Assembly: GCA_049999805.1 (NCBI GenBank)
Contig: JBNGIO010006043.1
Coordinates: forward strand, 1-40,917
Reading direction: 5' to 3'
DNA length: 40,917 bases
Source of the DNA: Folioceros fuciformis
Taxonomy: Eukaryota
In this document: piece after piece, positions 1 to 24,246 of the stretch
How the letters are laid out: every line of letters starts with the position of its first letter
Numbering within the stretch: the first letter of the stretch is position 1
Notes under the pieces: model-generated
The model's input: the letters and a program-made list of their open reading frames with translations, nothing else
Databases searched by the model: none
Told to the model about the DNA's origin: nothing
Translations under genes and position numbers: made by a program

Positions 1-2004
1 TGGAATTCATTTGATGTGAATTCCCCACCATTATCTGATCTTAAGGTTTTCAGCTGCTTCCCTGTCCACCGTTCAGCAAACTTGATATACTCCTTGAAGT
101 AGGAGAAACACTTGCTCTTCTGTTTCAGGATGTATGTTGTGACAAATCTGCTCTTGTCATCGGTGAATGTGAGAAAATATTTTCCTCCACCAATTGAATC
201 CTGGGACAGAGGTCCACACAAATCTGTGTGGACAAGTTCAAGAAGATCACTTGCTCGGTGAGGGGCCTGATTTTTGAAGGTTGCTTGATGTCTCTTCGAA
301 AGAACACAAGCCTCACATAATGGAATTGAGGTCAAGGGACCAATGGGTCCATCCTGGTAAAGGTCACTAACTGCTAACTTTTGCAGCTTTGTCATGTGTG
401 GGTGACCTAAGCGGGCATGCCACAACTGAGATTTAGCTATCTGTTGTGCTGATGCCTTGGAGACATCCTGTGTCAGGTGGGACTCAACTATTCCACTATT
501 CAAATGGAGACGGAACAGGTCATGGTCCGAAGACCCATATGCAAGTACCTTCATATGGTCAAATGCATCTATTATCTGATAGTCTGTTCTAGTAAATAGC
601 ACATGGCTGCTATTGTCTGCATTCAGTCTTCTAACTGAGATGAGGTTTCTTGTCATGTCAGGTACATAGTAGACATCCTGCAATTTGAGGGTTAGTCCAG
701 TGGGAACTGGCAAGTCTACAGTACCTCGACCAGGAGAGACGAGAGACCTATCGTCTCCAAGATACACATACTGGTCAGCGAGTGGCCTGTATGTTAAGAA
801 TGCGTTTTTTGTCAAAGCAGATATGAGCTGTGGCTCTTGTGTCGAGATACCACTCTGCAGTGGGTTTAAAATATGCTTTGGCAGACAAGCATGTGGGTAG
901 CAGAAGTGGACTTGCAAACTCCCTTGTCCCAACTGTGAGGGCAGAAGGAGTGTTTAGCTTCTTGACCACAACGTGTGTCTCAGCTGAAGATCCCTCCTTG
1001 CGAGGAATTCCAGCCTGCTTCTTCCGACACTCACGTTCCCAATGGCCAGGTAACTTGCACCAGTTACAAGTACCTGCCTTTTTGGTTTTCTTGTATAGAG
1101 TGTTGGTTCCCTATTGACCAGCACCCTTGAAATTACTGCTGCTTCCACCCTTTGAGAAGGTCCTTCTACCTCCTCGTCCTTGGTTGGATGTGTACAGGGC
1201 CTGCTGCTTCCCTGCACGCCTATAGTTGGTCTTGCTTGCTTCCTCTTGAAGCATTGAGCTCACCAACTGTGAAAAGCTCATCTCCGGCATTTCCACACCT
1301 TGTTTCTTGGCTAACAATGTAGCCTGTGTCTGTGCAGCAGTATGTGAAGTCACAAAATGTGACCACGATTCTGGAAGAGAAAGAAGGAGTCTCATCACCA
1401 TCTCATCGTCTCCTATGGTGACTTTGGAGGCACCCTGAAGCCTTGAAGCTAGGGTCCTGAAGGTACTCACGTGCTTTTCCACTGAGTCCCCATCCTTCAT
1501 TCTCAAATTTTGGAAGCTGTCATGATAATTTTGGAAGCATGTACCTGACATGACAATTTTGGAAGCTGTCATTGCACTGACCATGTTCTGCCCTGCGTAG
1601 AGTTCCTTGAGGCGAGTTAGGATTTCGGCTGAAGTCTTCACCCGAGCAGTCTGCCTCAACATTTCAGATGTTAGGCCACTGCGTATGAGGTACTTGGCTC
1701 CGCTGTCTTTAGCTAACCAATCTGCTTCCCCTGCTGTCCCTTCGCCAGGATACTCTACCTTTCCGGTTGCATATTTAAGGAGGCCTCTCATCTCGAGAAC
1801 ACCCTCCATCCGGATGAGCCAGATATCAAAGTCATTGCCGTTGAACCTGTCCTTTTCTTTGAAGGATTCACTACTACCAAAGTTAGAAGACAAGGCTGTA
1901 TCACCCATGTTTCTGGGTATAGATTGCTCTTCTATGACAGGTTATGACTCTGCTTTATTGAAGACGTTTCCAAAATCGTCTAGATCACTTTCTGATCGTT
2001 CCAT
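1..2004 (-). pseudogene. copia gag-pol of element 1 (gag, zinc knuckle, protease, integrase N-terminal/core), disrupted
   Basis: ATG at 2004 is in frame with ORF 1111..1908. In-frame stops at 1942-1944 (TAA) and 1111-1113 (TAG); frameshift in the T-run at ~805-810. The protease DTG motif reads DTR. Confidence 0.88.
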
Positions 2005-2014
2005 TCATTATTAC

Positions 2015-2704
2015 TTACAGTGCATGTTGGTTTTGACGTTGCAGGGTTTGATCCCATGCAATACTGCGTGCTGCTATCCTAGCACTTCTCATCTCATATT
2101 TGTTATAGAAGTAAGTTGAACATGAAGGGCAAGAATTTGGTGAGTCAAACTTCCTTTCACGATTTGTTTTACTTACGTGCTTGTAGGCAGTACCTCTAAA
2201 TGCTGGGTTAGACAGCAACTCGGGTTTTAATAGCATTACAAGTTTGTAATCTATATGTGCAAGCTGTTCTTTTAAATCCTGCAAATCGATACTAGCTGCA
2301 GAAACATGACCTGAAATCTGGTTGAATCTATTTTCAACATTCCTATTGTTAGTTTCAAGACGCTGAACAATTGTGTTTACACTGGTTGATTGTGCAGCGC
2401 CAGTCGTGAGGAAACTGCATTGGCGTACAATTTCAGCAAGTGGTTGATTTTGTACAGCGCTCCTCTCCACTGTGAATGTTAGGTCGAGTTCTGTTGGGAA
2501 CAGCAATTCAAGTAGTGTGTTGAATGCTCCCTTCAGTGTTTCTGTTTGCGCTGGTTGAGTCCTGTGCCTGTGGCTCCATTGTTGAACACACACATGTAAT
2601 TGGTTGGCAAGGGTAAATCTGTCAGCGACTCTGTATCGATTCTGCCTAGGATTGTTGTTCCCCCTAGGATTTTCCTGGGGAGCAAGATAGATATAATTTG
2701 CCAT
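2015..2704 (-). CDS. Extra 229-aa ORF of unknown function inside copia element 1, between PBS and gag
   Basis: Uninterrupted 229 codons in AT-rich sequence; start context GCC-ATG-G. Heptad-like segment (IVQRLETNNRNVENRFNQISGHVSAASIDLQDLKEQLAHIDYKL) and a CPSC motif. Stop lies 10 nt before the gag ATG. Confidence 0.65.
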   Translation of the reverse strand: MANYIYLAPQENPRGNNNPRQNRYRVADRFTLANQLHVCVQQWSHRHRTQPAQTETLKGAFNTLLELLFPTELDLTFTVERSAVQNQPLAEIVRQCSFLTTGAAQSTSVNTIVQRLETNNRNVENRFNQISGHVSAASIDLQDLKEQLAHIDYKLVMLLKPELLSNPAFRGTAYKHVSKTNRERKFDSPNSCPSCSTYFYNKYEMRSARIAARSIAWDQTLQRQNQHAL

Positions 2705-3056
2705 GGCCTTGAGCCAGGATTGTTATATCTAAAATGCAGAATTTCTGCATTATAGAGATCCTTTTATATAAATCATATACACTAATCTGCCTATTAGACA
2801 GTTGTTCTAGTGCATCTGCATGGAATTGTCTAAACTGACAATTTAATGGAAATGCATTAGAAAATCTGCCTGATTCAGCAGCATTCTGTGTTAGATTTTT
2901 CTAAAAGAAAATATCAGAAACTATTTTCTTGAAAATCTTCTTGTTTCTTTCTTTTGAACTCATTTTCAAAATAGGAATACTAAAGAAGATAAATTCGTGC
3001 ACATTTTCTAGTGCAGAATTTCAATGCGCATCTTCCTACATGCATTCTACAAAGTG

Positions 3057-3069
3057 AGCTCTGATACCA
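3057..3069 (-). promoter_or_regulatory. Primer binding site (tRNA-iMet) of copia element 1
   Basis: Plus strand agctctgatacca = TGGTATCAGAGCT on the minus strand, the standard plant iMet PBS. Confidence 0.9.
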
Positions 3070-3389
3070 TAACAATATTATACAGATTATGTAGAAATAA
3101 ATCACATCATTAAGTANNNNNNNNNNNNNNNNNNNNNNNNNNNNNNNNNNNNNNNNNNNNNNNNNNNNNNNNNNNNNNNNNNNNNNNNNNNNNNNNNNNN
3201 NNNNNNNNNNNNNNNNAAGTAATTACATTGTATATCAAGAAAGGGGTTAAAATGCTTATGCATTAAAAGACAACTTAAACTAAATGTGAAAAGACATAAC
3301 GTTTCTCAAGCGACGTAACCCTAATGAACGGTCATGTACTATAGCTTTAACTAAACCCAATTAATACAACCCTAATCATGACTCCAACA
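3070..3389 (-). repeat. Putative 5' LTR of copia element 1 (interrupted by assembly gap 3117-3216)
   Basis: Begins TGTTGGAG on the minus strand at 3389 and abuts the PBS at 3069. AT-rich and not similar to the LTR of element 2. The partner LTR would lie outside the window. Confidence 0.55.
3117..3216. other. Assembly gap (100 N)
   Basis: Run of exactly 100 n; the flanks share aagta. Confidence 0.99.
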
Positions 3390-6300
3390 CATCTATTCTG
3401 TTAAAGACATGTTGTCACAATGCAAGATTGTTGGCCCTTCTTGCTTCATACCTAAGTCTTCACAAAGCTTCCTTTCCCACTCAGCCTCCTTAATGGCTTC
3501 AATGAGTGCCTTGTACTCAGACTCTGTGGAATACAGAGAGCTGGCTGCTTGTTTTCTACATGACCAATTAACTACAGAGGAGTTGGCTAGAAAACAATAA
3601 GCCGATATAATTTTTCAAGTATCAGCGTCAATGGCCCAGTCTGCATCTACATAACAAGTGAGCTTAAGATGCTTCTTCTTAAATGAGCTTAAGAGCTTAA
3701 GATGTTGTGTTTATCGCAAAGACCATAATTGGATGTGCCCTTGAGGTACCTCATGATACGCTTGAGAGCTACCTAGTGATCCTTTCCTGAGTTTTCAAAG
3801 AACTGAGCAATTGCATTTACAGTGTTGGAGATATCAAGCCTTGTTTGATTACTCAAAAACGTAAGAGTACCAACGGCCATACGGTAAGGAATATTCTCCA
3901 TCTCTTTCTTGTCCTCTTTAGATTGTGGACATGAGGCAAATGAGAGCTTGACGCCAAAGGCACCTGGAGTGTTTGATGCCCTTGCACCCTCCATGTTGTA
4001 GCGTTTGAGCATACCAGCTACTTCTCTACCCTAATGAAGATAAATAGCACCTGTACTATCTTTGTGTACATGCATGCCAAGGATATACTTAACCTTTCCC
4101 AGGTCTTTCATCTCGAATTCCCTGCTGAGGTCTGCCTTAATCTTGTTAACTAGTTCTACGTTATTTCCTCGAATGGCCAAGTCATCCACATAGAGAGCGG
4201 CTAGCACAAGAGAACTATCCTTGCATAGAACATAGATGTTAGTATTAGCTTCACTTTGGATAAAACCTATTTTCTTAAGATAAGTGTTCATCCTCTCATA
4301 CCACAGACGTGGGCTTCACTTGAGTCCATAGATGGAGCAATTGAGTTTACACACCTTGTGTGGGTACGTCTTGTCTTCATAATTCTGAGGCTGATCCATG
4401 TAGATCTCTTCCTGAAGATGACCATAGAGAAAGGCCGTGCACACATCTAGCTAATAAATCTCTAAGTTGAATTCAACACATAAAGCTAGAACCATCCTAA
4501 CCGATGCGGCTTTAACTACAAGTGAGTAAACCTTATCGCTCTGATAATCAACTCCTCTTTCTGACTATACCCCTTAGCCACTAATCTCGCTTTGTAGCGA
4601 ATTCTAGGCTCAACTTCTTGGAACTTAGTCTTAAGAACCCATTTGCACTTAATGCTAGTTCTACCCTTAGGCAGGCTCACTAGAGACTAGGTATTATTTC
4701 TGATCAATGAGTTATACTCATCATCGACGGCCAGCTTCCATTTAGCTGCCTCAGGTCTAGAGTAAGCCTCCTGCAAGGTTAAAGTATCTCCCTATGCAAC
4801 ACCAACACGTAAGGCATAGAGAGCATCCATTGAATCAACATAGGTTAAACCAGCTTGATTAAACTCAATGTCAAACGATTGTTCCTTCCAAAGGTGAGGT
4901 TGGCGCACAAGAGTAGGATATCTACGCTCAGGAGCAACCGTTGGCCTAGGAGGGGATGGAGGAGTGTGGAGAGCATGAGGAATATCATGAGGCACCATGT
5001 GATCAAAACCAACATGTTCAACATCACCTTGTTCCACAGGTAGGTCCTCCGCTACTCCCTCGTGATCTATCTCCATGTCCCCCTCTTGAGCAGGAATAGG
5101 TGGCGTAGGAGCGGGCTGCATGTGTGGAACAAGACCAACAACTGGCGGCACCGGACCTGCTTCAGGGATAGGAGCCATAGGAAGAGGAGGAACACCAACA
5201 GCGGGAAAAGTAAAGGACTGAACGATGTGTTCAAAACAAATGGCACTAGGGGAGTGTGGAGTGCTCGAGCCAGAAGAAGCACCATCAAAGACGCTAGGAG
5301 GAAGCTCCAAGGGTGTCCCAAGAGCAGGCACTAGCTTGGCTTCATCAAAAGTTACAGTGCGCGCATAGATTGGAGTCCGAGTGGCCATGTCCACGAGCTT
5401 GTAGGCTTTGCGAACATTACAATAGCCCACAAAGACAAGCTTTCGAGCACAAGCGTTAAGCTTATCACGATGCTATGAAGGAACAAGAGCATAGGCCAGG
5501 CAACCAAAAACACGAAGATGTGAAATTGGAGGCTTGGTCCCATGCCAACACTTGTAGGGTGTATGGCTGGAAATCGCCTTGGTAAGGACCCTGTTCTTAA
5601 TGTATGCCGCAGTAGACACAGCCTCAGCCCAAAAGGACTTGGGCAACTGAGACCAGGTCAGCATGGCACGAGCCATGGACATCAAATCGCCAGGTTAGCC
5701 TTCTCGGCCACGCCATTCTACTCAGAGGTGTAAGGTACAGTGAACTGCCTCAAGACACCACTCGGCTCGTAGAAACCACGAAACTGATGATTGTTGAGTT
5801 CCCCCACATTGTCGAATCGAATACATTTAAATTGACGGCCAGTCTGTAACTCGGCCATAGCAACAAAAGGTGAGAACACATTAAACGAGTCTCTCTTAAG
5901 TTGGATGGGAAACGCAAATGTATATTGACTGAAGTCATCAACGATAGTCATAAAAAGGTTAGCCCTGCCTAAGGACGCAACAGGGAGAGGACCACATAGG
6001 TCTACGTGGACCAGGTCAAGAGGCGTAGTGGATCGACGAGCAGGAAGAGTAGGATATAGAAAACTTCTCTATTTCGCAAGCACACAAGCTTCGCAAAGAG
6101 GCAGTTTCGAGAAAAGCATTGGAAGTTTATCCCGATACAAATCCTGCTGAGTCGTGGCCAAAAGCCGGGCTGGATTAAGATGTCCAAGCCGACAATGCCA
6201 AAGGAGAGTGTCAGTGGGGTGGGATCTCCTCAAAGGCTAGTTGCCAGGAGAGGAAACCGCAAGGGAGCCAATCGCCGTAAGCACGGGCTGACCTGAGAAG

Positions 6301-9300
6301 ACATACAAGTCATGACGGGGACGACCTCTAGCAACAATCACATGGGGTTTAGAGAACTGATATAGAAGGCAATCTCCAGACCCAAACTCAAGACGAAAGG
6401 AGCCATCCCAAACAAGTTGTCGGACAGAGATGAGATTCTTGGCCATCTGGGGAACATGTAAAACTTGAGAAAGCACCATGAGGGATCTGTCATCCAGAGT
6501 AAAAGCAGCGGAGCCAACCCCCGCAATAGAGAGGCCAGAGTCATCTCCAAGGAGGACGAAGCGCTGAGTGTCAGTAGCCGCCTCGTAGGTGGTGAACATG
6601 GTCTTGTGACTACATATATGCGTTGACGCAATAGAATCAATCAGCCATGACTATCTGTATTCAAATGCCACAAGAAAAATTCCAGGTGAAGAAGGATTCT
6701 TGGCCTTGGGCGAGACAACAACGGTGTTAGCTGTACGCGGCGCATGCTTGGTCTCACCTGCTTGCTTCTTCCTACACTCTCGTTCCCAATGACTCGGCTT
6801 TTGGCACCAATTACATGTGCCTTGCCGCTCAGGAGTCTTGGATGAGGAGGTTGCTGAGGAAGAAGGCTTGTAGGAGCCATGGGAATTGTTCCTGTTATTA
6901 GATTTGTTAGAAGGCGTACGCTGTTGTTGACGTCCTTTGGCGACGAACATGACCCGGTCGCCTCCATGTTTTGAAGTCCCGACATTGAACCTGGCAGACT
7001 CCTCTTGAAGGAGAGCTTTAGCAATCTCGGACACAGTGATGTTGGGTACCATACCCAACTGCACAGCCTGATGTGCATTTCTCACCGTTTGGTTTTGTGA
7101 GGAAACAAATGTATAGTAGCCAGCCGGGAGGCTAGCCAATAACTGAATACCAGCTTCAAATTTGGTGATGGTTGTCTCAAGAGTAGCAAGCTGGGCTCGC
7201 AAATATCGAAACTTGCTAATGTGCTAAGCAATGCTGTCATTGGGGCCCATGTGAGAAGAATAGAATTCCAGGCATACCGTGACAAGCGTCATCACGGTAG
7301 TGGACTGATAGATGTCAGTGATTTGCTTCCAAGCTTCAGCAGATGTGGACGCACCATCCGTATGGTGTAAGGTAACCTCATCGAGGCTAGAGATCAACAT
7401 CTGCATAGCTTGTCGATCTTGACGAACTCAAGCATCAATGGCAGCCAGATTAGCAGTGGGCTTGGGAATGGTTTCTTCCACGATGGGAAGAAGATCCTAA
7501 GTGTTGAGCGCAGTCTTCATGCGCTTTGACCACACCTCAAACTTCGTACCGTTAAATCTATCCTTTTCCTTGAAGTTAGTATTGATATTAATGATGTTGA
7601 AGTAAGGTTGAAGTGGTGAAATACCAACTGGGGGTGGAGGCAGTGGGTTGCCTGCTGGTCCACCAAAAGGTGGTGGGTTACCGGTTTGCCCACCTGGAAG
7701 TGATGTGGGTGGTGACGGGGGTCTTTATCCTGGCCTTGGAGACCCAAGGAACCCCGACCCAGAGGTAGAAGCGCTTAACATCTCTTGTGGGTTTTAAACC
7801 AACACGTAAGCCGACAATATGTTATGACACAATGCCGAGAGTACCAATGAAAGAAGAATCACAAGAAATTATTTAATAAAAGTATTTCCCTTCGTCTTTT
7901 AGGATCCACCCACCACAGTTATTTCCTCCCTTGCTTCAAGTGATCTAAAGGAGAGGAGGAGAAGGCTCGGTGACTTCAGTGCTCTCTGAACTGACACTCC
8001 CTTGAAATTCTTGAATTTGGGTTGTCAGGTGGAGAAGATCTTCGTTGGCCTTGGCCACTGCTTGCCAGAGAGCAAGAAGTCTGGCAGGCCGTGTTGGTGG
8101 ATTGAATGGAACAAGAGAGTCTCTAGACAAAGGGTTCTCCAGACAAGTCTTCAATGGGTTTCCGGTGAGGATGCACCCGCATTGCCAAACCGCGATGAGG
8201 AGGAGGCAAAGGATTGGCCTCGATCTTCACGGGTGCAAGGTTGAGTCCTTCTCCAGTCAAAGCCGTAGGAAAAACACAGGTAAGTCCTTACTGTGCCAGA
8301 AAATCGCCATGAAGGGGTGCCAACAAGTGTGAAGAGGCACAAAATGGAACTGGTGCCAAACTTGGCCGCATTCACATTGGTTCGTGGATAAAACGAACCC
8401 ACCTCCACGAAACGACGAGTTAAAACGTCGTTTCGGGGGTCTCGCACCGATTCGGGGGTCACGCACCGATTTGCAGGTGCGTGCGCCTCCTCGCGTGCAG
8501 GGCAAGCGCCTTGGGCGCAACACTCCACCGCGATCGCGATGGCGGCAGCACGCTCTTCACTGAGCGCCTGCAGCCTCGACCGCTCGGGACGGTGGTCTAG
8601 CGACGGTGCGTCCCAAAAAATGCCTTCCTCCTGCACAGTAATCAAACAAGATTGAGCTCCTGGCTTGACGATTTGCCCGTGCACCTGGGTAGAAGCAAAT
8701 CCACCACAATCCGAACAAATCCTCATCCTACAGGGTTAGAGAGGAGAGCATTATCGATTGTCTGCTCCTTAGGAAGGGGCAGAAGGCTCCGAGACGCCCC
8801 GGGGACATGATCATCTTCTGGAAAACCGTCGTGAAGACAATCAACTTTTGGGCTTGGTCTTGGTGTGCAGGTGCAAGCACGGGTGCGATTTCAGCCAAGT
8901 GCTCAGGTCCTTCTGGTAAGGTGGAGGTCCTCTCCAAAAATCAGGTCATGAATTGAAGCAAAACGGCCGAAATCCTCCCCAACAAGATTGCTAGAGAAAA
9001 GCATTCAGAGGAGCTCTCCTATCACAGATTGCACCCATCTTGGTGCGATTCGATGGGCAAGAAATGGCGTTCATCTAAGGCGAGTTGGCCTAGGCAATCG
9101 TGCCTCAGAAAGATGGGGAAATCGTACATTCCGACGTCGTCTCCTGGCCATGATCGGGCTGGGAGGTTGCGCACGACGAAGTGTAGGGGAGAGGCAGAAT
9201 GCCTCTCCCTTTACTTCGAAGATTCATACAGCCTGCTGTATGTTCATATGTACACGAAAGCATATTTAAATTGTAGAAAGTTGACAAGGGTTTGATAGCC

Positions 9301-9466
9301 CGTCTTCTACCAAAACTCCAATATTAAGCACCTTGGGCTTGGATCAATACCCAGATGGGTAAAGAAAATTTTTTGATGGCATATTCATAGCCAAGACACA
9401 ATGCTACCTAGACTATCTAGGACAAACAATCTTCTAGGCATAATAAACATAGGCCATATGAGTTGT

Positions 9467-9479
9467 AGCTCTGATACCA
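9467..9479 (-). promoter_or_regulatory. Primer binding site (tRNA-iMet) of copia element 2
   Basis: Plus strand agctctgatacca. Confidence 0.9.
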
Positions 9480-9675
9480 AGTTAGAATTGCTAATGTAGA
9501 AGCAGATGCATCGAAAATGATCTATTAGCAACTGAATAGGTGGATACAAAGTAGCAGTTTCGGAAGGGGTGTGCCCTGTAACTAACCGGCCAGTTAACTA
9601 ACTACACTTATAACTAGGTCTAGTTAGGCTAACCAACGTAATACAGAACCATGTGGTCTGCCTTATATTCCAACC
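9480..9675 (-). repeat. Putative short (~195 bp) 5' LTR of copia element 2
   Basis: Adjacent to the PBS; the distal end reads GGTTGGAATA on the minus strand (TGTTGG-like), with TATAAG inside. No second copy in the window, so the boundary is approximate. Confidence 0.5.
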
Positions 9676-10584
9676 CTAATGCACCAGCAAGTAAGGATCC
9701 CCATTCATCAAATGTGTGCTTACAACTTTTGCTAGCCGGAATTTTTGATTATGGATATCGTTCTCACATGGTGTGATTATAAACATCTCTTTTTTATCTC
9801 CAAAACATATCCATTCATTTGAGCAATCTCAATCGCTTGCCTTCCAGTACTTCTACAAGCACCTAATAGTATGTACATGAGCATTTCAAGTAGGTTTTGT
9901 TAGATGAAGCACAAAAGTGCTTCATCTAACAAAACTTCTTTTAATATCTGCATAGGTAGAAACAGTCTTTTCACATCAGCCTTTTAATTTTGTACCACTT
10001 CCAGGGGTTTATAGGTTCGAATTCCACTTTGTTATCCACAAATATTGTGGACTTCCTACAAAGGGTTAGAATAGACAAATACTCTTTGCCAACCCTTTGT
10101 CCATTATCCTTTAGGATGGATAGGCCCCATTCATGGTTTTTGCATAGTGATGAAATATTCCAGCTGTAGTTTGAAACAGTTAATGGTGAATTCCATTGTT
10201 TCCTCTTCTCCAAGGTGTGTAGGATAATATTAAGGCCTTTGCATTAACCTTATTATCCCACACAAGACAGAAAACAGACAAAAGCTACTCTAGACATTGT
10301 GACTCTCTAGAGTAAGGGCATGATATGCTATTTGGGATTACATCGATGCCTTGGAGCCGCTAAATGTTATTCTCTTAAAAAACATTTGTCTTCCATAGTA
10401 GTTGCCTACTGTGGTATGACCTTGACATGTAGTCTTAGAGGTGGTTTAGGGTTTACGAGTGCTTCTATTTGCTCTTCATGATCGCATGCGCTAACACCAC
10501 TCATCTCCTCCTTCAACCCGCTAAGCCCCAAAGCACAATTTGAGTGATTGAAACATCTTTTTCCAACTGATTCAATTCTTTTGC

Positions 10585-12445
10585 CTAGAATTGGGAAGCC
10601 CCCCAATGATGGGCCTCATATATCAGCTCCTCATCCGCATCTGGCAAATCCTCATATCCATGAATGTGCTGCGGTATAAACTCGGCGCAACACTTAACAA
10701 TAACAATGATGTAGCACCCGCATAACAATCCTGCCAATATTGTGGACCAACCACCTAAACATGCATCAACTATCCAATTGCCCTCCCTCGAGAACATTAT
10801 GATTAGCTTCATCATAAGACCAAGTGGGCCTTGGTAAGGACTTACAACTAGCTTATCGAGAGACATATATAGCAATTTCTTCACAAATAGTGTCGTGGGA
10901 TATGATGGTACGACCATTGTTGAAGGATCCTTGCAATATAATGGGTTGCATGGCGACTTTTGTCTTTGTGCTGCTTGACGATGTGCCCCAGCCGATTATT
11001 ATGCACTCCACTGTATTAAACCCCCCAAGTCATTGGGCATATTGGTCTTATCCCACGCCCTAGCCCATTATTACACACCCCACTATATCCAAACCCCCCA
11101 AGTCATTGTCCATGTGGGTCTTATCCCAAATGAAGGAAACAAGGCCTCCGATTGTGCACCACTTTCTCATGGAGTCCTACACTACTCGAATATCCTCCAC
11201 ACCATGCATGACAATGAACCATATATCTTTTAATATCGTCATATCATTGAAAGCTTGGTATATAGTGGACATATGTGCTTGTTCCATACAACTGTTATAT
11301 AGTCTTTTTCGAAGCCCTATGGGGACATTCATGATCAATGTGGTATAGAGATGCGGACGTAGAAAACCCTGCATATTCAGCACATACCTCGCCACCACTT
11401 AATATTGCACAATAGCTTCGATATGAGAGATTATGAACTTTTGCAACCCAACCTCCATATCCAAGTCCGCCAGAGCATGGAGCTCATTCTCGAGTCCTTT
11501 CTGCGTATGGACCTCTAAGATGAAAGCTTGGAAAGCTTTACGTAATTTTTTGAGGTTTTCTACATCCTTCACTTGCTACACATAGGAAAAGAAATCCTAG
11601 TTAGTAAAGTGTCATATTGACGAGTAACACAAAGAAGTTTGTGTGCCTACCTTTCCCTCAAATGATGTTTGGAACCATGTGACAACTTCGTCTGTTGAGT
11701 GCACTAGGTATTTACAACGCACCTCGTGAAACGATTCACAAGCAAGATGGTTAACCTTGGAAACCTAGATAACATGGAGCTTTTTCCTTAAAATGATCTC
11801 TTTGATCATGCCATTCAAGTCAATCAAGCCAGTCAACACGGGAGCTAAGGTGCCAACGCCCCGTTTTCTTGCCTTTCCCTTTGCTTGTGCCCCCTCCCCG
11901 GCTTGTGGGCCTCTTTAGCACCATATTTGTTGCATGTGGAATCTTCCGTTCGTCACATGTTCCTCCTCTTCTGCTACCGAAAACTCTTTGTCGATGTCTT
12001 CCTGTTTGTAGCGTGGTGGAAACCAAGCAAGTTGGGGGCTTTCAAGATCCCTACGCTCACTTTTCCTCTGCTTTGCTCTTCCATGATTAGTGTCCGGAGG
12101 CGATAGTGGCAACTAATCATCCAGTCCTTCTCTTGGAGGTTGTGTGTCTTTGCCTTAGCAGCAATTTGTCGAAGGTGCATCATCGCTTTGTACATGTATG
12201 GAGAAGGATTCAGTAGATCTTTTCCCATAAACCTCAAGGACTTGCTAAATCCCTCACTCCAAGGTCACCTTGAGCCTGCACTGCCGGGACTTGGGCCCAT
12301 AGCCCCTCCTCCCTTGCCACCAGTCACTCTTGCTCCGTCCTTCTGCTAAGATAAGTGCCCTATCCTCGGTGTGGAGGATGGTAAGGCTGTGGCCTCTGTA
12401 GTTGTCGCTACTGGAGGTTTCTTTCTTGTCAGCTTTCGTGGGCAA
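10585..12445 (-). pseudogene. Decayed beta-class DNA amino-methyltransferase (N6_N4_Mtase-like) gene with an N-terminal extension
   Basis: Motifs in beta-class order across frames: YTTLIMNVPIG (motif IV, DPPY-like, 11318-11329), FIWDKT, TVECIIIGWG, then SPYQGPLGLMMKLIIMFSREGNWIVDACLGGWSTILAGLLCGCYII (compare HPxQKP..L...LI..S.EGD.VLDPF.GSGTT..A....GR..IG). Phase-0 GT-AG intron 11650-11576. Several stops and frameshifts; the 5' limit is uncertain. Confidence 0.7.
10984..11128. repeat. Diverged tandem duplication (72 + 73 bp) inside the methyltransferase relic
   Basis: Copies 10984-11055 and 11056-11128 both contain aaaccccccaagtcatt and end ggtcttatccca. Confidence 0.9.
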
Positions 12446-12656
12446 AACTCGCTCTTCAATCCACCTGTGAATTCATTCACACCCTATGTCAAATCCTTCT
12501 TGCTTCAGAGCCTACTTGCCAAGTGAACAACCCCGGAAAGAAGGATGAAAGGACCAACAAGCTAGAAACTTGAAAGGTGCAAACACGAACTGTGTTGGGT
12601 GCAAACGATGCAAGTTTAAGTAGTTCAATGATTCAAGTAGTTCTTCTTCTTTGTAG

Positions 12657-13708
12657 GGGAAGACTATCTTCCAAGCTTTGCTAATTACTAAGGTCTTGAT
12701 TTCATTTCACTTTTTATCAGATATTTTAGAGGTCCTTAATACCTTGAATACTAACTTTCAACATGATTATTTAGAGCCAGTTAGCATAGCTCCGCTTATA
12801 GATTCTGTTGTTGAACATGTCAAAAGTATGTATACAATTGATAGGGTGAGCATGGGAAGTAGAAAGCTTTTCTCTTTCCTTGAAAACTTGAAAAAAAGTC
12901 ATAGAGTGTATGAGGGTTTTGTAATATCTGACTGTTCTGAAACCGAACTAAGCTATTGCATTGCTAATGCTAACAAATAGGCTTTAGCTGTTGTTGATGT
13001 AGTGAATAATAAGTTTCCTGATCTTCGTGTGCTGCATGCTTGTCGCTTATTCAGTCCTAAATTTTTTCTTGAAGATGCAAATGAGCGTATACAGTTAGTT
13101 AATAGTTTGTTAGAGGTATTGTTGAAAAAGTTTGGCACTAACTCTTTGGATGCAAATACTAATGTTGTTGACCCTTTTGTAGTTGATAAAGTGTGTCAAG
13201 TTGAGTTGGTAACATTTGTGTCGATCTTGAAGTCTTCTTGTGCTGGATTGAGTATGTTAGCAGCTTATAAAATATACTCAACAGCTAGGGAGTGGGTAAT
13301 ACTAACACCCTCTATGTTACGTCTTTGGGAATTATGTTTGGTCATACCTTGTAATACTGCTATATGTGAGTGAGGATTTTCCAAACAAAACTTTTTGATG
13401 AACAACATGAGAACTAATCTTAATATTCTGACCGTTGATGCATTGATGAATATATCCATCAATGGTTCCCATGTTAAGGAGATAGATTGGAATGGTATTT
13501 TTAAAGCTTGGAAAGACCAACCCCGATGATAGAATATACTAGATATTTTTGTATTTTAATAATAATATTATTCATAAATATTATTTAATATTATTATATT
13601 TAGTGACCAAGGGTTGCAAAAAGGCATGGTCCCTCGGTCCGGGACTAAGCATAGCCAGGCTAGGCGGTCCCGGTGACTGAGGTAGTACTCAGTCAAAATG
13701 ACACCTTG
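12657..13708 (+). mobile_element. 5'-truncated hAT-superfamily DNA transposon (ZNF862/ZMYM1-like transposase C-terminus, dimerisation domain), pseudogenised
   Basis: One frame 12657-13529: FHFLSDILEVLNTLNTNFQ ... LCLVIPCNTAICE*GFSKQN...RTNL...VDALMNISING...W, matching the hAT dimerisation motif (P.S.A.CERGFS). Stops at 12978 and 13371. GC-rich subterminal region ends aaatgacaccttg (13696-13708), resembling a CAGGG-type TIR. Confidence 0.8.
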
Positions 13709-14112
13709 CTCATAGCGAGCTAGTTCCAAAAGATAAACAAGGGTTTAGAGGTCACTCAAAGTAAGAACACAATAATAATCGTAGAAATAAAAATGAAATT
13801 CAAGTCCTTATACCTAGTGAAATAGATGCCAACTTCCCCAGCCAGCACAGTCATGAGAAGGTCTATGACCTCTCTTAGAAGACCAATCAAAGGATGAATC
13901 AAAGGACTCGGTTCGGTTAGCGACTGAAAACCATTTTATTTAAAAAGTGTTCATTTTCTCTCAAAATAAGCCAAGTTGTTAAGACGAAGGGCTTTCTCCG
14001 GGTCTACGTACAGTGTATGTATGAGGCAGGGTGCCCGAGTGGTGGGGCCATCTGCGCTTTCTAACTTATTCTTATATCTCTACATACTGTAAGACCTGCT
14101 CGTAGTGGAGTG

Positions 14113-14485: not shown

Positions 14486-15915
14486 ATGGGAACGGTTAGC
14501 AAGGAAGTGATAGTGGGGAAGGAAGGAAGTGAGGTGAACGTGTACCAACTGGAACGAGGTCCCATAGCTGTTAAGGTCACTAATGTAGGTGCCACAATCA
14601 TGTCAATCACGGTGCCAGATGCTGAAGGTGAGTTTGTGTTCTCCAGTGCAAACCGCCTCGTGAAGCACTCTCTCTTGGTGTTGTGTGTTGACTGATGTGC
14701 AGCAGAAGGGGTGGGGTATCATCATCTCCATTTGACTACTTGGTTTGGGTGGGTTGTAGGTGAAGTTGACGACGTAGTCCTGGGTTTTGACAGCCTCAAT
14801 CCCTACCTGGCAAACCTTCTCAACCTGCTCATGCTGAAGTTGTTGAATTTGCATGCTGAAGCTGTTGAATTTGCATGTTCGCATGGTTTTTCACAATCAC
14901 AATCAAGGTGCTGGAATGCTAGAACTTGCGAGAAAGGGGCGATGAGTGCTAGAACTTACAAGAAATGGCTGATGAGTGCAGAACGGCACTTCCCCCTACT
15001 TCGGTTGCATAGTAGGGAGAGTGGCCAACCGGATTGCTGGTGCGGAGTTCACACTTGACGGGGTGAGACACAAGCTCCCTGCAAACAATGGTCCCAACAC
15101 TCTTCACGGTGGAGAACAAGGGTTTGATAAGGTGCTCTGGCAGTCCAAGGAGGTGGACAATCCGAAAGGGCCATCGGTGCAGTTCACCTATCGAAGCCAT
15201 GACGGGGAGCAAGGTATGCATGCGTCCATGATCGCTGCTGCATCCAGCCGCCAATTTTTGTCCACTAAACCCTGATGTCTTCAAATCGTTGACAGGTTTT
15301 CCAGGGGACCTGGATGTCGCGGTGACGTATACCTTGACGTCGGACAAGGAACTGGAAACCAGGATGGAGGCCAGTCCCAGCACTAAGGCCACTCCTGTAA
15401 ACTTGGCTCAGCACACATACTGGAACTTGGGAGGCCACGGCAGCGGTGATGTTCTGGAGCACGAGATACAGATATTCGGTGACCACATCACCCCAGTGAA
15501 TGAAAACCTCATTCCTACCGGTGAGATCAAACCTGTAGCGGGAACTCCGTTCGACTTCACGCAGCTGCAAGTTATTGGGAGCCGGATTCACCAAGTCCCG
15601 GGTGGCTACGATCACAATTACGTTTTGCGGAAAGGAAAAGACTCTTCAGAGGTGGATCTGGCAGCAAGAGTGAAGCACATCAAGAGCGGCAGGGTTTTGG
15701 AAGTACTGACTAGCGCACCTGGAGTTCAATTCTACACCGGCAACTTCTTGGACGGGATGGCAGGCAAATCTGGAGCCGTGTACAACATTCACGCAGGCCT
15801 GTGCTTGGAGACGCAGCACTTCCCTGATTCCGTCAACCAGCCGAGCTTCCCTCCCATCATTGTTCAACCTGGAGAGACATACAAGCAAGTGATGATCTTC
15901 AGATTTTTCCCGTGA
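14486..15915 (+). CDS. galM: Aldose 1-epimerase (galactose mutarotase); exons 14486-14627, 14760-14809, 14982-15213, 15296-15915
   Basis: Spliced protein contains DVVLGFD, PYFGCIVGRVANRI, LHGG, GFPGDL, NLAQHTYWNL, GYDHNY, GVQFYTGNFL and CLETQHFPD. Intron 2 is GC-AG. Confidence 0.95.
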
Positions 15916-20451: not shown

Positions 20452-21333
20452 CACTCCAGCTAGAGGACCCTCTTGTCTTCTGTTCCACCTCCGAAAATTG
20501 CAACGTGAGCCATCGATCGTGCTGAACATGGCAGTGGTTTCCGTGTTTGTAATAGTGACATGCCGTGATTCTACAGGGTTGAGTTGTGGGAACGCTGCGA
20601 GGGCTGAAAAAGCTTAACTTGCTGGCGTGCAGCCGGCAGCATCCCTTGTCTTTTGTGCTACTTCCAGCCAGTGCAGTCAGACCCGAATCCTCGAAAGCTT
20701 TCATTGCTGCCAGAGGAAGGGCAGGACGCTTCTTAGGCCATTTGGATCGTCCTTTCACCTCAAAACCGTCATGCCTTCTCTTCTTCTACGAGAAAAGAGG
20801 CTTTTACAGAACGAAGCAGGATGAAACCACAGAGCATGTAAAGCCAGCGGTAGGTAGAAAACACGGTGACAAGTGTAACAGAACCCTAATCGGATGACAA
20901 AGCAGCCCCGACTCCAAATCCCTTGTGGAAGAGTCTCTTCCTCTTCGATCCATGAGGGAAAAGGAATGCGGAGGATGCGTCCTGTTCAAGTATGATAAGA
21001 GTATGGGAGGAGGAAGTCCTAGGAGACGTATGTACTTTCGATCCAAGAGCGTCTCATGGATTTTCACAGCCTGTCAGTCAATCTTAGCGAAAAGCCTCCA
21101 CTTGGGTTCAGCCACTTTCTCGTCAGTCCGCTGCTTGGGTCTCTCCAACCAGAAGGTATGACTGACCTTGCTATTCGATTAATCAAGAATCCTGAATATT
21201 TTTTGTCAAAAAAAACTAAGGAAAATAAAAAGTCTCTCTCCATCAGAGACGCTCTCTAGCGCGGTCACTTTGGTGGACAGATGCCATGCAGTGTGTGTTG
21301 TTAGGCCCATCCTTGGACAGCGGTCCCTGATCG

Positions 21334-24246
21334 ATGGCCACAGTCTGGCAACCGGATTCGTTGTGGACTCAACAGAATCGTGGTGTGTGTACAAGGATTC
21401 TGCCAACAGCTCGGGCTCCCGCTCACTTCAATTCATGGAATGAAGCCCAGGCAAACAAGCAAGCGTCCAGGTGCAGTAGTTCGAGGAGCCCAGCACTTGT
21501 CATTCCGAGGAAATGTGTGGGTGGAGACGGATTATCCATGGATGGTCGTCGCCAGGAGCAGGAGCACTTGTGGCAACAGTTCTTTCTGGAGCCTACCATG
21601 TGGTGGGACAGCAGACGAGATAAGAAGAGCTCACATGCGCCTGACTTCCGGCGGAAGGGGTCAGGGGAGGTCCTGTGGTTAAATAGCATCCTCAAACCAG
21701 CTTGGGTGGATGAGCAGCTCGTGTGTTTGGATGAGCAGATGGGTCATGGTGCCTCTGCTGTCAAGTCCAGCTCTCCGGATAAGCCTGAACCCAGTGGCAG
21801 GAGTGCAGGATCGGTGACGCCTGGATCAGTGAGTATGTTATGTCAGCAGGGAAAGCTTTCTGAGGCTGTCGTAGCCCTGGAGTGTTTGGGGGAGACAATG
21901 TCTGCCATTTCTCCGTCTCTCTTTTCCACTGTGCTGAAGCTGTGTGCGGCTAAGAAGGATCTCGTTGTTGGGCGACGAGTTCATGAGCTGACGGTCAAAC
22001 TGGGGTACGATTCGAATGCGTACTTGGGGAAGCATATCTTGCGCATGTACGCATGTGGGGGTAGGCTAGAGGAGGCCATGAATGTGTTCACCAGGGTGAT
22101 CAAACCAGACGCCTTCATGTGGTCTTCCATAATCTCTGCACATGCTAAGCAGGGGAAACCTAAGGAGGCCATACAACTGTACCATGAGATGGGTGGGTCG
22201 GGAGTGAAGGCGGATGCCCACGTCTTTGTAGCTGTCCTTCAAGCTTGTGCATTCGCTAGCGACTTGGAATCTGGTAGAAAAGTGCACTGGGATGTGTTGC
22301 ACAGTGGCATTCCTCTGAACTTGTTTGTTGGCACCTCCCTGGTGGGAATGTATGCAAAATGTGGTGCACTGGAGGATGCTCGAAGGGTTTTTGACAACTT
22401 GGCCACCAAAGATGTGGTGACATGGACGGCTCTGCTTGGGGGCTATGCCGATCGTGGCTTCAGCCAAGAGGCTCTTGTTCTGTATGGACAAATGGAGGAG
22501 GAGGGCCTCATTGTGGCTGACCGTGTTACTTTTTCTTGTCTTCTGAAGGCATGTACACGCGCTGGCGACGTACTGAAGGGCAGGCAGTTGCACTCACAGA
22601 TAATGAAAGGGGTGCTGCTGCATGACACCGTGTTGGGCAACAGCCTGGTGGACATGTATGTAAAATGTGGTGAACTGAAAGATGCACATCAGGTTTTCGA
22701 CAGCTTGGCCACAAAAGATGTGGTGACATGGACGACCCTTATTGCTGGGTATGCACAGCAAGGTCTTGGCCAAGAGGCAATTGGTCTGTATGGGGAAATG
22801 CAGGAGGAAGGCCTGATTGTGGCTGACCATGTCACTTTTGCGTGCCTTCTGAAGGCCTGTACGAGCGCTGGTGCCTTGCAGAAGGGCGAGGAGCTATATT
22901 CACAGATTGTGGAAAGAGGACTCTTAGATTATCCCCTGGTGGGCAACTGTCTGGTGGACATGTATGCAAAATGTGGTGAACTAGAGGGTGCACGCCGGGT
23001 TTTTGACAGCCTGGCCACGAAGGATGTGGTGACATGGACCACGCTGATTGCTGGGTATGCAAATCATGGGCTTGGCCAAGAAGCAATCGTTCTGTCTGCA
23101 CAGATGGAGCAGGAGGGCCTGATTGTGGCTGACCATGTTACTTTGGCTTGCCTTCTGAAGGCCTGTGCAAGCACCGGGGCCTTACAGAAGGGCAGGCAGC
23201 TGCACTCACAGGTTGTGGAAAGAAAATTGCTAGATAACGTACTTGTGGGCAACTCCCTGGTGGACATGTATGCCAAATGTGGTGAACTGGAAGATGCACG
23301 CCGGGTTTTTGACAGGTTGGTCACCAAGGACGTGGTGACTTGGACCGCCCTGATATCTGCGTACGGTACTTGTGATGACGGTCACAGTGCACTGGCTTGT
23401 TTTGATGAAATGTTGCTTGCCGGTATTCAGCCTGATGGTGCTACATTATCTTGCCTTCTGGCAGCCTGCAGTCACGAGGGGCTTGTCCACGAGGGTCGCA
23501 AGCACTTCGATTCCATGGCTGAACAGCATGGTATCAAACCCACGGTTGAGCATTACAGTTGCATGATTGATCTCCTTGGGCGTGCGGGCTATCTAGATGA
23601 GGCAGAGAACATGCTGTTATCATGTGAAAGCCAAAGCAATGTCGTGGGGTTGACATCGTTGTTGAACGCCTGCAAAAGTCACGGGGATATTGAGAGGGCC
23701 ACGCGGTGCTTTGAAACTCTGCTCAAACTAGAGCCTCAGAGTGCTTCCGCATATGTGCTCATGGCCAATGCCTACGCAGACGCAGGTAGATGGAGCGATG
23801 TGGACAGGATCGAAACCCTGAGACTGGCCGCAGGAGCTAACAAGAAACCTGCCATGGCAACCATCGAGGTGAACACGCAAGTACATAGATTTGTGGTGGG
23901 AGAAAAAAGAGAGGATATTGCACTTCAAGTAGAGAGCACGAATGCTCGGTTGAAGCAGGAGGGCGGCCACGCCCCTCACACAAACTTGGTGTTGAAGCCA
24001 GTGTGCGAGAAGGAAAAGGAAGATGCGCTTTGCGGGCATGCTGAGAAGCTAGCTCTTGCATTTGGTCTCTTGAACACTCCGAGCGGGACACCCCTGGTGG
24101 TAACCAAGAATCTCCGCATGTGCAGTGACTGCCACAGTTCCACGGAGGTCATGTCAAGGCTCGAACGGAGACACATTGTTGTAAGGGATGGGTACCGCGT
24201 TCATCGATTTGCGGATGGATCTTGCAGTTGTAAGGGTCGACCTTGA
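21334..24246 (+). CDS. PLS-class PPR protein with E1/E2 and a DYW:KP (GRP-terminating) deaminase-like domain and an N-terminal PDF motif; candidate organellar U-to-C RNA editing factor
   Basis: Intronless 970-aa ORF with P-L-S triplets and P2-L2-S2-E1-E2. KPAMATIE replaces the PG box; HAEKLA; CSDCH; C-terminus CSCKGRP. Ser/Arg-rich N-terminus is compatible with a transit peptide. Confidence 0.95.
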   Translation: MATVWQPDSLWTQQNRGVCTRILPTARAPAHFNSWNEAQANKQASRCSSSRSPALVIPRKCVGGDGLSMDGRRQEQEHLWQQFFLEPTMWWDSRRDKKSSHAPDFRRKGSGEVLWLNSILKPAWVDEQLVCLDEQMGHGASAVKSSSPDKPEPSGRSAGSVTPGSVSMLCQQGKLSEAVVALECLGETMSAISPSLFSTVLKLCAAKKDLVVGRRVHELTVKLGYDSNAYLGKHILRMYACGGRLEEAMNVFTRVIKPDAFMWSSIISAHAKQGKPKEAIQLYHEMGGSGVKADAHVFVAVLQACAFASDLESGRKVHWDVLHSGIPLNLFVGTSLVGMYAKCGALEDARRVFDNLATKDVVTWTALLGGYADRGFSQEALVLYGQMEEEGLIVADRVTFSCLLKACTRAGDVLKGRQLHSQIMKGVLLHDTVLGNSLVDMYVKCGELKDAHQVFDSLATKDVVTWTTLIAGYAQQGLGQEAIGLYGEMQEEGLIVADHVTFACLLKACTSAGALQKGEELYSQIVERGLLDYPLVGNCLVDMYAKCGELEGARRVFDSLATKDVVTWTTLIAGYANHGLGQEAIVLSAQMEQEGLIVADHVTLACLLKACASTGALQKGRQLHSQVVERKLLDNVLVGNSLVDMYAKCGELEDARRVFDRLVTKDVVTWTALISAYGTCDDGHSALACFDEMLLAGIQPDGATLSCLLAACSHEGLVHEGRKHFDSMAEQHGIKPTVEHYSCMIDLLGRAGYLDEAENMLLSCESQSNVVGLTSLLNACKSHGDIERATRCFETLLKLEPQSASAYVLMANAYADAGRWSDVDRIETLRLAAGANKKPAMATIEVNTQVHRFVVGEKREDIALQVESTNARLKQEGGHAPHTNLVLKPVCEKEKEDALCGHAEKLALAFGLLNTPSGTPLVVTKNLRMCSDCHSSTEVMSRLERRHIVVRDGYRVHRFADGSCSCKGRP
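22321..23350 (+). repeat. 306-bp tandem repeat (S-P-L triplet, ~3.3 copies) within the PPR gene
   Basis: S motifs start at 22321, 22627, 22933 and 23239, exactly 306 bp apart, with near-identical DNA (e.g. atgtatgcaaaatgtggtg, gatgtggtgacatggac). Confidence 0.92.

Follow-up and report, generated by a model that had tools for sequence, protein, structure and literature searches.

The subject of this study is a decayed methyltransferase-like gene on the minus strand of a 40,917-nt window of Folioceros fuciformis contig JBNGIO010006043.1 (GCA_049999805.1), to which all coordinates refer. An earlier note on this DNA had read the locus as an inactive relic of a beta-class amino-methyltransferase, citing several peptide strings and their order. 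All quoted strings were recovered on the minus strand between 10585 and 11575, with the catalytic half first and the S-adenosylmethionine (SAM)-binding half last, as the note had stated. The remnant of motif IV, NVPIG (within TLIMNVPIG), is encoded at 11315–11329, IWDKT sits in the minus-strand open reading frame (ORF) 11060–11176, and ECIIIGWG sits in the ORF 10853–11029 of the same strand. The ORF 10585–10995, also on the minus strand, encodes PYQGP (10825–10839), followed by LMMKLI, FSREGNWIV and DACLGGWST (10741–10767). For the copy analysis, contigs of DNA runs from the same organism (X1, X2 and X3, all one sample) were compared with the window over positions 9000–14000. The locus comprises the following features.

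10210..10584, minus strand: 3' flank duplicated along with the relic; in runs X1 and X2 the alignment of diverged contigs begins at 10210/10218
10585..10995, minus strand: methyltransferase-like domain, C-terminal half; open frame of 136 aa that ends with the stop 10585–10587
10985..11128, strand not applicable: 73-bp tandem duplication, 2.0 copies with 83% matches (Tandem Repeats Finder, repeat search, translation)
11063..11575, minus strand: N-terminal catalytic half of the domain; one frame, broken by stops (family profile, BLASTP, translation)
11576..11650, minus strand: putative 75-nt GT-AG intron (splice signals read from the sequence)
11651..11764, minus strand: open frame upstream of the putative intron (ORF list)

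The frame of the catalytic half contains internal stops at 11399–11401 (TAA) and 11177–11179 (TAG) and ends with the stop at 11060–11062 (TAG). In addition, the tandem duplication repeats the 'W-D-K-T...G' segment and disrupts the reading frame, and a frameshift, judged by eye, lies at about 10890–10925. The C-terminal frame of 136 codons (10995–10588) has no in-frame connection upstream to the catalytic half. The motifs themselves have also changed. The relic carries DACLGGWST as motif I, where relatives have D-x-x-x-G-x-G-S/T, the second G being replaced by W, and its NVPIG stands where relatives carry DLPRG, DIPHG or DIPYG; NVPIG would most simply derive from DLPRG. Other elements are recognizable: PYQGP corresponds to PYQKP in relatives, 'FIVMHG' and 'IWDKT' are the counterparts of the family strings 'VVFHS' and 'VW.KTN', and the acidic 'LPD..EE' tail of the family is also present in the C-terminal frame. 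The window copy is thus dead, as indicated by its in-frame stops, 73-bp tandem duplication, frameshift and mutated motifs. By itself the relic is ordinary as a pseudogene, and the interest lies in the family behind it.

The homology of the relic was established through eukaryotic relatives. An exhaustive phmmer search with the 136-aa ORF, covering 1.84 billion representative proteins, found 10 proteins at E ≤ 1e-3 (best 5.6e-12), every one of which exceeds the PF01555 gathering score (30.0–66.2 vs. 26.7 bits). A family profile was built from these ten relatives (alignment A1), trimmed to the methyltransferase domain, and used to search the window in all six frames (1597 ORFs). It matched 10588–10995 with E = 7.2e-23 at profile positions 162–251 and 11180–11398 with E = 1.1e-4 at profile positions 20–90. 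The ORF 11063–11176 took its place between them at profile positions 94–115, in the right order but not significant alone (E = 9), and no further ORF among the 1597 fell below E = 2. Moreover, 14 of 14 stored relatives matched the C-terminal half (10585–10995) by tblastn, with E values from 1e-16 to 2e-7. When the N-terminal half was read through, with X at the stops, pairwise BLASTP aligned it with the relatives P0016, P0003 and P0002 (E = 2e-11, 2e-8 and 2e-7), that is, with all three relatives that cover this half. Since the family profile matches both domain halves in order and the N-terminal alignments agree, the whole domain is present in the permuted beta-class order, in broken form. 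With respect to PF01555 membership, there is no direct match, there is homology to proteins that pass the gathering score, and the permuted order is present; the window copy has NVPIG instead of a canonical motif IV and DACLGGWST instead of an intact motif I. Two word-indexed homologue searches added little: the 136-aa ORF gave 6 candidates, none significant, and alignment A1 gave only 4 proteins, its 7999 candidates probably being swamped by low-complexity tails.

The GT-AG stretch with a branch-point-like ACTAAC that the earlier note had reported is present. On the minus strand, GT lies at 11650–11649, AG at 11577–11576 and TACTAAC at 11606–11600, together with a pyrimidine tract. The putative intron is 75 nt long, a multiple of three, and contains 3 in-frame stops. 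Similarity to P0003 starts with the first codon past the AG, and in the relatives on two 5-kb metagenome contigs, L001 and L002, the methyltransferase exon is preceded by a canonical GT-AG intron of phase 0, which separates it from a long N-terminal ORF. These two observations lend the proposed acceptor indirect support at the sequence level; the intron position in the relatives is not reliably alignable with that in the window across a variable linker. No RNA run was listed as containing 10300–12300, and a run guessed to be RNA (X4) yielded only two contig pieces, at 13635–13705, which lie outside the locus and say nothing on expression. Upstream of the putative intron, only the last 40–50 nt or so of the frame 11651–11764 (to about 11690–11700) are common with the diverged copies, whose matching ends at 11689–11699. 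This frame has no detectable similarity to the N-terminal region of the family by the N-terminal profile, and no Pfam match; a likeness to the end of that region seen by eye was rejected when the N-terminal profile gave no support.

The family is represented here by 53 proteins, 39 of which cover motif IV and 14 of which do not. Its named member is Ginkgo biloba Gb_37443 (P0007, 670 aa), and the remaining members come from public assemblies; two plant genomes contain the family. A second search gave 27 proteins of a tightly conserved subfamily with 55–78% identity. The canonical beta-class motif IV has the consensus (D/N/S)-P-P-(Y/F/W), which none of the 39 proteins covering the motif carries. 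They have instead D[IV]PYG (34 proteins), DIPHG (1, the Ginkgo protein), DLPRG (3: P0002, P0003 and P0016) or ANIPSG (1, P0051). Motif I is kept in most relatives. Motif IV of the family is therefore D-[I/L/V]-P-x-G, with DLPRG in three of three members of the subfamily nearest to the window. Scans with family patterns, which distant relatives could escape, found no relatives in IMG/VR and none in 185,579 prokaryote genomes. The Ginkgo member, the GT-AG introns and the lack of a viral or prokaryotic match in these pattern scans point to a eukaryotic family. The members with DIPYG also contain a basic KRKRK stretch, which by eye resembles a nuclear localization signal.

A tree was calculated with 36 rows: the window ORF, nine ORFs with DPPYG from metagenome loci, and 26 proteins taken from the set of 53. 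The 27 family rows, including the window, were split from the nine DPPYG rows with support of 100/100, and the family fell into three groups, namely DLPRG, the Ginkgo-type DIPHG and DIPYG. The window clustered with the DLPRG clade (87/66).

The fold was evaluated by profile and structure comparison. Against CcrM (6pbd), the family profile gave E = 3.4e-12 over the whole domain, with the D-l-P-r-G of the family opposite DPPY, and it also matched RsrI, MboIIA, DpnA and rotifer N4CMT; the 11 PDB sequences that it matched are, without exception, DNA methyltransferases or putative modification methylases. The AF2 model of the intact relative P0009 (pLDDT 80.7) was closest to CcrM in Foldseek (E = 3.2e-15). 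The top 20 matches listed are all beta-class DNA amino-methyltransferases, including CcrM, rotifer N4CMT, M.BceJIV, RsrI, MboIIA and PvuII. Searches of NCBIfam and PHROGs pointed to CcrM-type and phage DNA methyltransferases, under the curated cut-offs. The predicted fold of the family, as modelled for P0009, is accordingly beta-class and closest to CcrM.

In L001, L002 and Ginkgo P0007 the N-terminal region is long and contains a 'GGNHGARA' box; the N-terminal ORF of L002 matches residues 135–347 of P0007 with E = 5e-30. This region shows a weak match to HTH_ParB (E = 8.6e-4, below the cut-off), and P0007 shows one to DUF6551 (E = 0.019). Comparison with prokaryote-like ParB N-termini by hhalign was not significant (E = 0.26), NCBIfam and PHROGs gave no matches to the region, and its AF2 model was poor (pLDDT 45.5). 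'ParB-like' is hence a lead for this region and not an established assignment. No trace of the region was found in the window by tblastn or with the N-terminal profile. L001 (403–1782) and L002 (138–1238) contain a further conserved ORF of about 370–460 aa, which lies upstream of those for the N-terminal region and the methyltransferase and has the same orientation. Neither Pfam nor PHROGs gave a match for this ORF; it is either one more exon of the gene or a separate gene linked to it. The introns of both contigs (L001 3160–3500, L002 2990–3440) contain dense short palindromic repeats that translate as recurring peptide-like strings in several frames and look like miniature inverted-repeat insertions.

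Comparison with the DNA runs showed that the relic belongs to a repeated unit. Exact contigs cover 9622–10667 and 11121–12684, and none is listed for 10668–11120. Diverged contigs of runs X1 and X2, with about 83–90% identity, span 10210–11699, and up to four of them overlap at 10730–10757. The repeated unit is therefore about 1.5 kb long (10210–11700) and runs from the 3' flank through the methyltransferase exon and the putative intron to about 40–50 nt beyond it. Further upstream, 11839–12506 has the depth of the single exact contig listed there and nothing more.

From these results, we consider it likely that the locus is a non-functional pseudogene fragment, the decayed methyltransferase exon of a eukaryote-specific beta-class (PF01555-type, permuted) amino-methyltransferase-like family. 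The fragment would consist of this exon, the preceding intron and a short upstream piece, and would encode nothing now. It was probably spread at the DNA level and not via RNA, because the intron is retained and the organism has several copies of the 1.5-kb unit that are about 85% identical. As for the family, its most likely origin is an ancient acquisition of a methyltransferase from bacteria or phages, after which introns would have been gained and at least three subfamilies would have diverged. The ancestor of the window copy was probably no conventional writer of N6-methyladenine (6mA) or N4-methylcytosine (4mC); perhaps it was a pseudoenzyme that bound SAM, or an enzyme whose substrate had changed. 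Catalysis appears doubtful in the DLPRG subfamily, the nearest to the window, because the aromatic residue of motif IV, which has a catalytic role, is missing.

Several points weigh against this interpretation. The PF01555 search on the window, proposed in the earlier note, matched none of the six minus-strand fragments, each searched singly, to Pfam at E ≤ 10. A profile of six canonical DPPY proteins reached only a non-significant E of 0.18 with the C-terminal ORF, and phmmer of the ORF alone against PDB sequences gave one SAM-methyltransferase match, likewise not significant (E = 0.95). The assignment to PF01555 is thus transitive and runs through intermediate sequences of the eukaryotic family. 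In the tree, the window branch is very long (2.37), so the placement with DLPRG is only moderately supported, and the DLPRG subfamily is documented by three sequences only. The suggested loss of catalysis relies on the general role of the motif IV aromatic residue. Finally, summed contig depth does not equal copy number, and the copies seen give a lower-bound impression from one sample.

Chance resemblance or bacterial contamination would be compatible with the lack of a direct Pfam match, but it is refuted by the family profile match (E = 7e-23), by the pattern scan of prokaryote genomes without relatives, and by the surroundings of the locus: copia elements, an aldose epimerase gene and a PPR gene of the DYW type share the contig, and apart from 10668–11120 most of the locus, with its flanks, is matched by exact contigs from the organism's DNA runs. 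The earlier note's view that the gene resides in a eukaryote and is no contaminant is upheld by this context. Residual function of the locus, for example as a 136-aa C-terminal peptide or a regulatory RNA, might be suggested by the C-terminal frame, open over 136 codons. We regard it as very improbable, given that this frame is unconnected in frame to the catalytic half, that the second G of motif I has become W, and that none of the six ORFs on the opposite strand matches a family. The link to the 4mC writers DN4MT1 and N4CMT drawn in the earlier note did not hold up. A relic of such an enzyme would share the beta-class PF01555 fold, and rotifer N4CMT is one of the best structural matches (Foldseek E = 1.6e-13; profile E = 1.6e-8, C-terminal part). 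However, DN4MT1 has TSPPY, whereas S occupies that position in none of the 39 family proteins covering motif IV; the best matches are adenine enzymes (CcrM, and NCBIfam CcrM-type models below their cut-offs), and the relatives lack a chromodomain, which makes this origin extremely improbable.

The claim that the gene is transposon-borne could not be substantiated either. Such carriage might mean a captured fragment spread by a DNA transposon, or a family whose gene itself travels in a mobile element, either as a passenger or as part of the core. The several diverged copies of the 1.5-kb unit in the organism would suit it, as would the position of the locus between copia relics (1–7223), a very-high-depth repeat (9501–9667) and a hAT-like relic (12657–13373). 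The DIPYG subfamily, moreover, occurs as many 55–78%-identical variants in environmental assemblies, and one protein, P0051, has a spoiled motif (ANIPSG). Yet in L001 and L002 the gene has no transposase, reverse transcriptase or integrase next to it; apart from the methyltransferase gene, these contigs contain only the N-terminal ORF of the family and one further ORF. In the window, the unit is not flanked by terminal inverted repeats or by long direct repeats, the segment just upstream (11839–12506) has the depth of one exact contig only, and neither in the window nor in L001 and L002 was a transposase, a terminal repeat or a target-site duplication tied to the unit. Transposon carriage is accordingly an unlikely explanation, though the most probable of the alternatives considered. 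As an extension of the decayed-exon reading, one might propose that the family consists of nuclear proteins whose long N-terminal region resembles DNA-binding domains, that the tyrosine-bearing DIPYG paralogue is an active writer of N6-adenine or another amino group, and that the DLPRG and DIPHG proteins, with R or H instead, are its non-catalytic partners; plants would then mark DNA or RNA by a system other than DN4MT1. This proposal draws on analogy, namely that [D/N]-[I/L]-P-Y is the motif of the Erm/KsgA adenine-N6 methyltransferases and that METTL14, with a degenerate motif IV, is the non-catalytic partner of METTL3, and we consider it improbable.

Several neighbouring features were also recorded. 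Pfam searches of the neighbouring ORFs found nothing around the locus except a weak match to the PD-(D/E)XK nuclease family PDDEXK_12 (E = 0.072, sub-cut-off) in a 96-aa ORF upstream of the relic (11974–12264, minus strand), which is probably due to chance. The segment 9501–9667 is probably a dispersed repeat present in many copies: its summed contig depth is 961–1620, compared with about 7–9 in single-copy flanks, and it is covered by numerous variant contigs, with small insertions. Between it and the relic lies a near-perfect 28-nt hairpin (9885–9944, 86% complementary, 4-nt loop). The plus strand at 12657–13373 encodes a decayed hAT-like transposase C-terminus, whose ORF 12981–13373 scores 0.95 to hAT dimerization-domain clusters in the ESM Atlas (Dimer_Tnp_hAT on 19 of 30 matches); Pfam gave no match for this relic, and its summed depth of about 80–190 suggests a moderately repeated element. 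A stop-to-stop frame of 971 codons at 21331–24246 (plus strand) encodes a PLS-type PPR protein with an E motif and a DYW deaminase domain, apparently an intact RNA-editing factor gene. Together with the copia relics and the aldose epimerase exon at 15232–15915, it identifies the window content as very probably that of a land plant. Run X3 showed 235 C>T and 314 G>A differences, compared with at most 23 for other changes, as expected for a bisulfite- or enzymatically converted library, and methylation data for this organism may therefore exist.

The use of bacterial-type amino-methyltransferases by eukaryotes is an active question, the known cases being 4mC in Marchantia sperm and in bdelloid rotifers; these two are the only cases of eukaryotic 4mC mentioned in the portion of PMC12344493 drawn on here. 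Should any subfamily of the present family be active, eukaryotes would have recruited a prokaryotic base-modifying enzyme independently once more; if the family is inactive, it would exemplify a pseudoenzyme that binds SAM and has been kept in eukaryotes. In the literature searched, no description of a DIPYG/DIPHG/DLPRG family was found. A 2015 survey of eukaryotic adenine methyltransferases, in the sections considered, describes six group-1 clades, none of them a land-plant permuted group with this motif, and states that land plants show few N6A-MTases (PMC4738411). A 'DNA methyltransferase' listed as horizontally transferred in the hornwort genome paper was considered and set aside, as its domains there are given as PF02870/PF01035, a different family (PMC7027989). 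The wider family that the earlier note had anticipated is therefore apparently an undescribed eukaryotic variant, with introns, three subfamilies and a changed catalytic motif.

Compared with the PF01555 beta-class enzymes CcrM, M.RsrI, M.MboIIA and M.PvuII, the family has the same order, catalytic half first and SAM-binding half last, the same '(P)-x-Q-K-P...L' helix followed by D-x-x-x-G-x-G-S/T, and, for P0009, the same predicted fold. It differs from these canonical enzymes in its D-[I/L/V]-P-x-G motif IV, its eukaryotic occurrence, its introns and its acidic C-terminal tail, and the window copy differs further in being a pseudogene that reaches no Pfam threshold. The nearest canonical whole-domain relatives found are prokaryote-like ParB_N + PF01555 fusions from metagenomes (L026, L047 and others), with 21–26% identity over about 200 residues. 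Two of the nine DPPYG rows of the tree, L026 and L047, were scanned with Pfam, and both matched PF01555 and ParB_N, the ParB_N cut-off being reached in L047 only. These fusions share 'D-x-C-C-G-S/T-G-S-T-L-V-A' with the family; unlike the family they have DPPYG, and the window copy lacks the N-terminal part.

DN4MT1a/b and N4CMT, 4mC writers of bacterial origin, resemble the family as eukaryotic genes of the same Pfam family and the same permuted class, N4CMT being a top structural match. In contrast to these enzymes, the family has D in the first position of motif IV and no chromodomain, DN4MT1 being compared by its published motif. Marchantia DN4MT1 carries TSPPY according to the part of its preprint used here (bioRxiv 10.1101/2021.02.12.428880), and rotifer N4CMT has a chromodomain and is said, in the passages of its report relied on, to be without eukaryotic homologues (PMC8885841). 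METTL3–METTL14 (MT-A70) has a distantly related fold (Foldseek E of about 1e-7) and belongs to a different family. By analogy only, the occurrence of DLPRG and DIPHG beside DIPYG is reminiscent of the pairing of an active with an inactive subunit in METTL3–METTL14.

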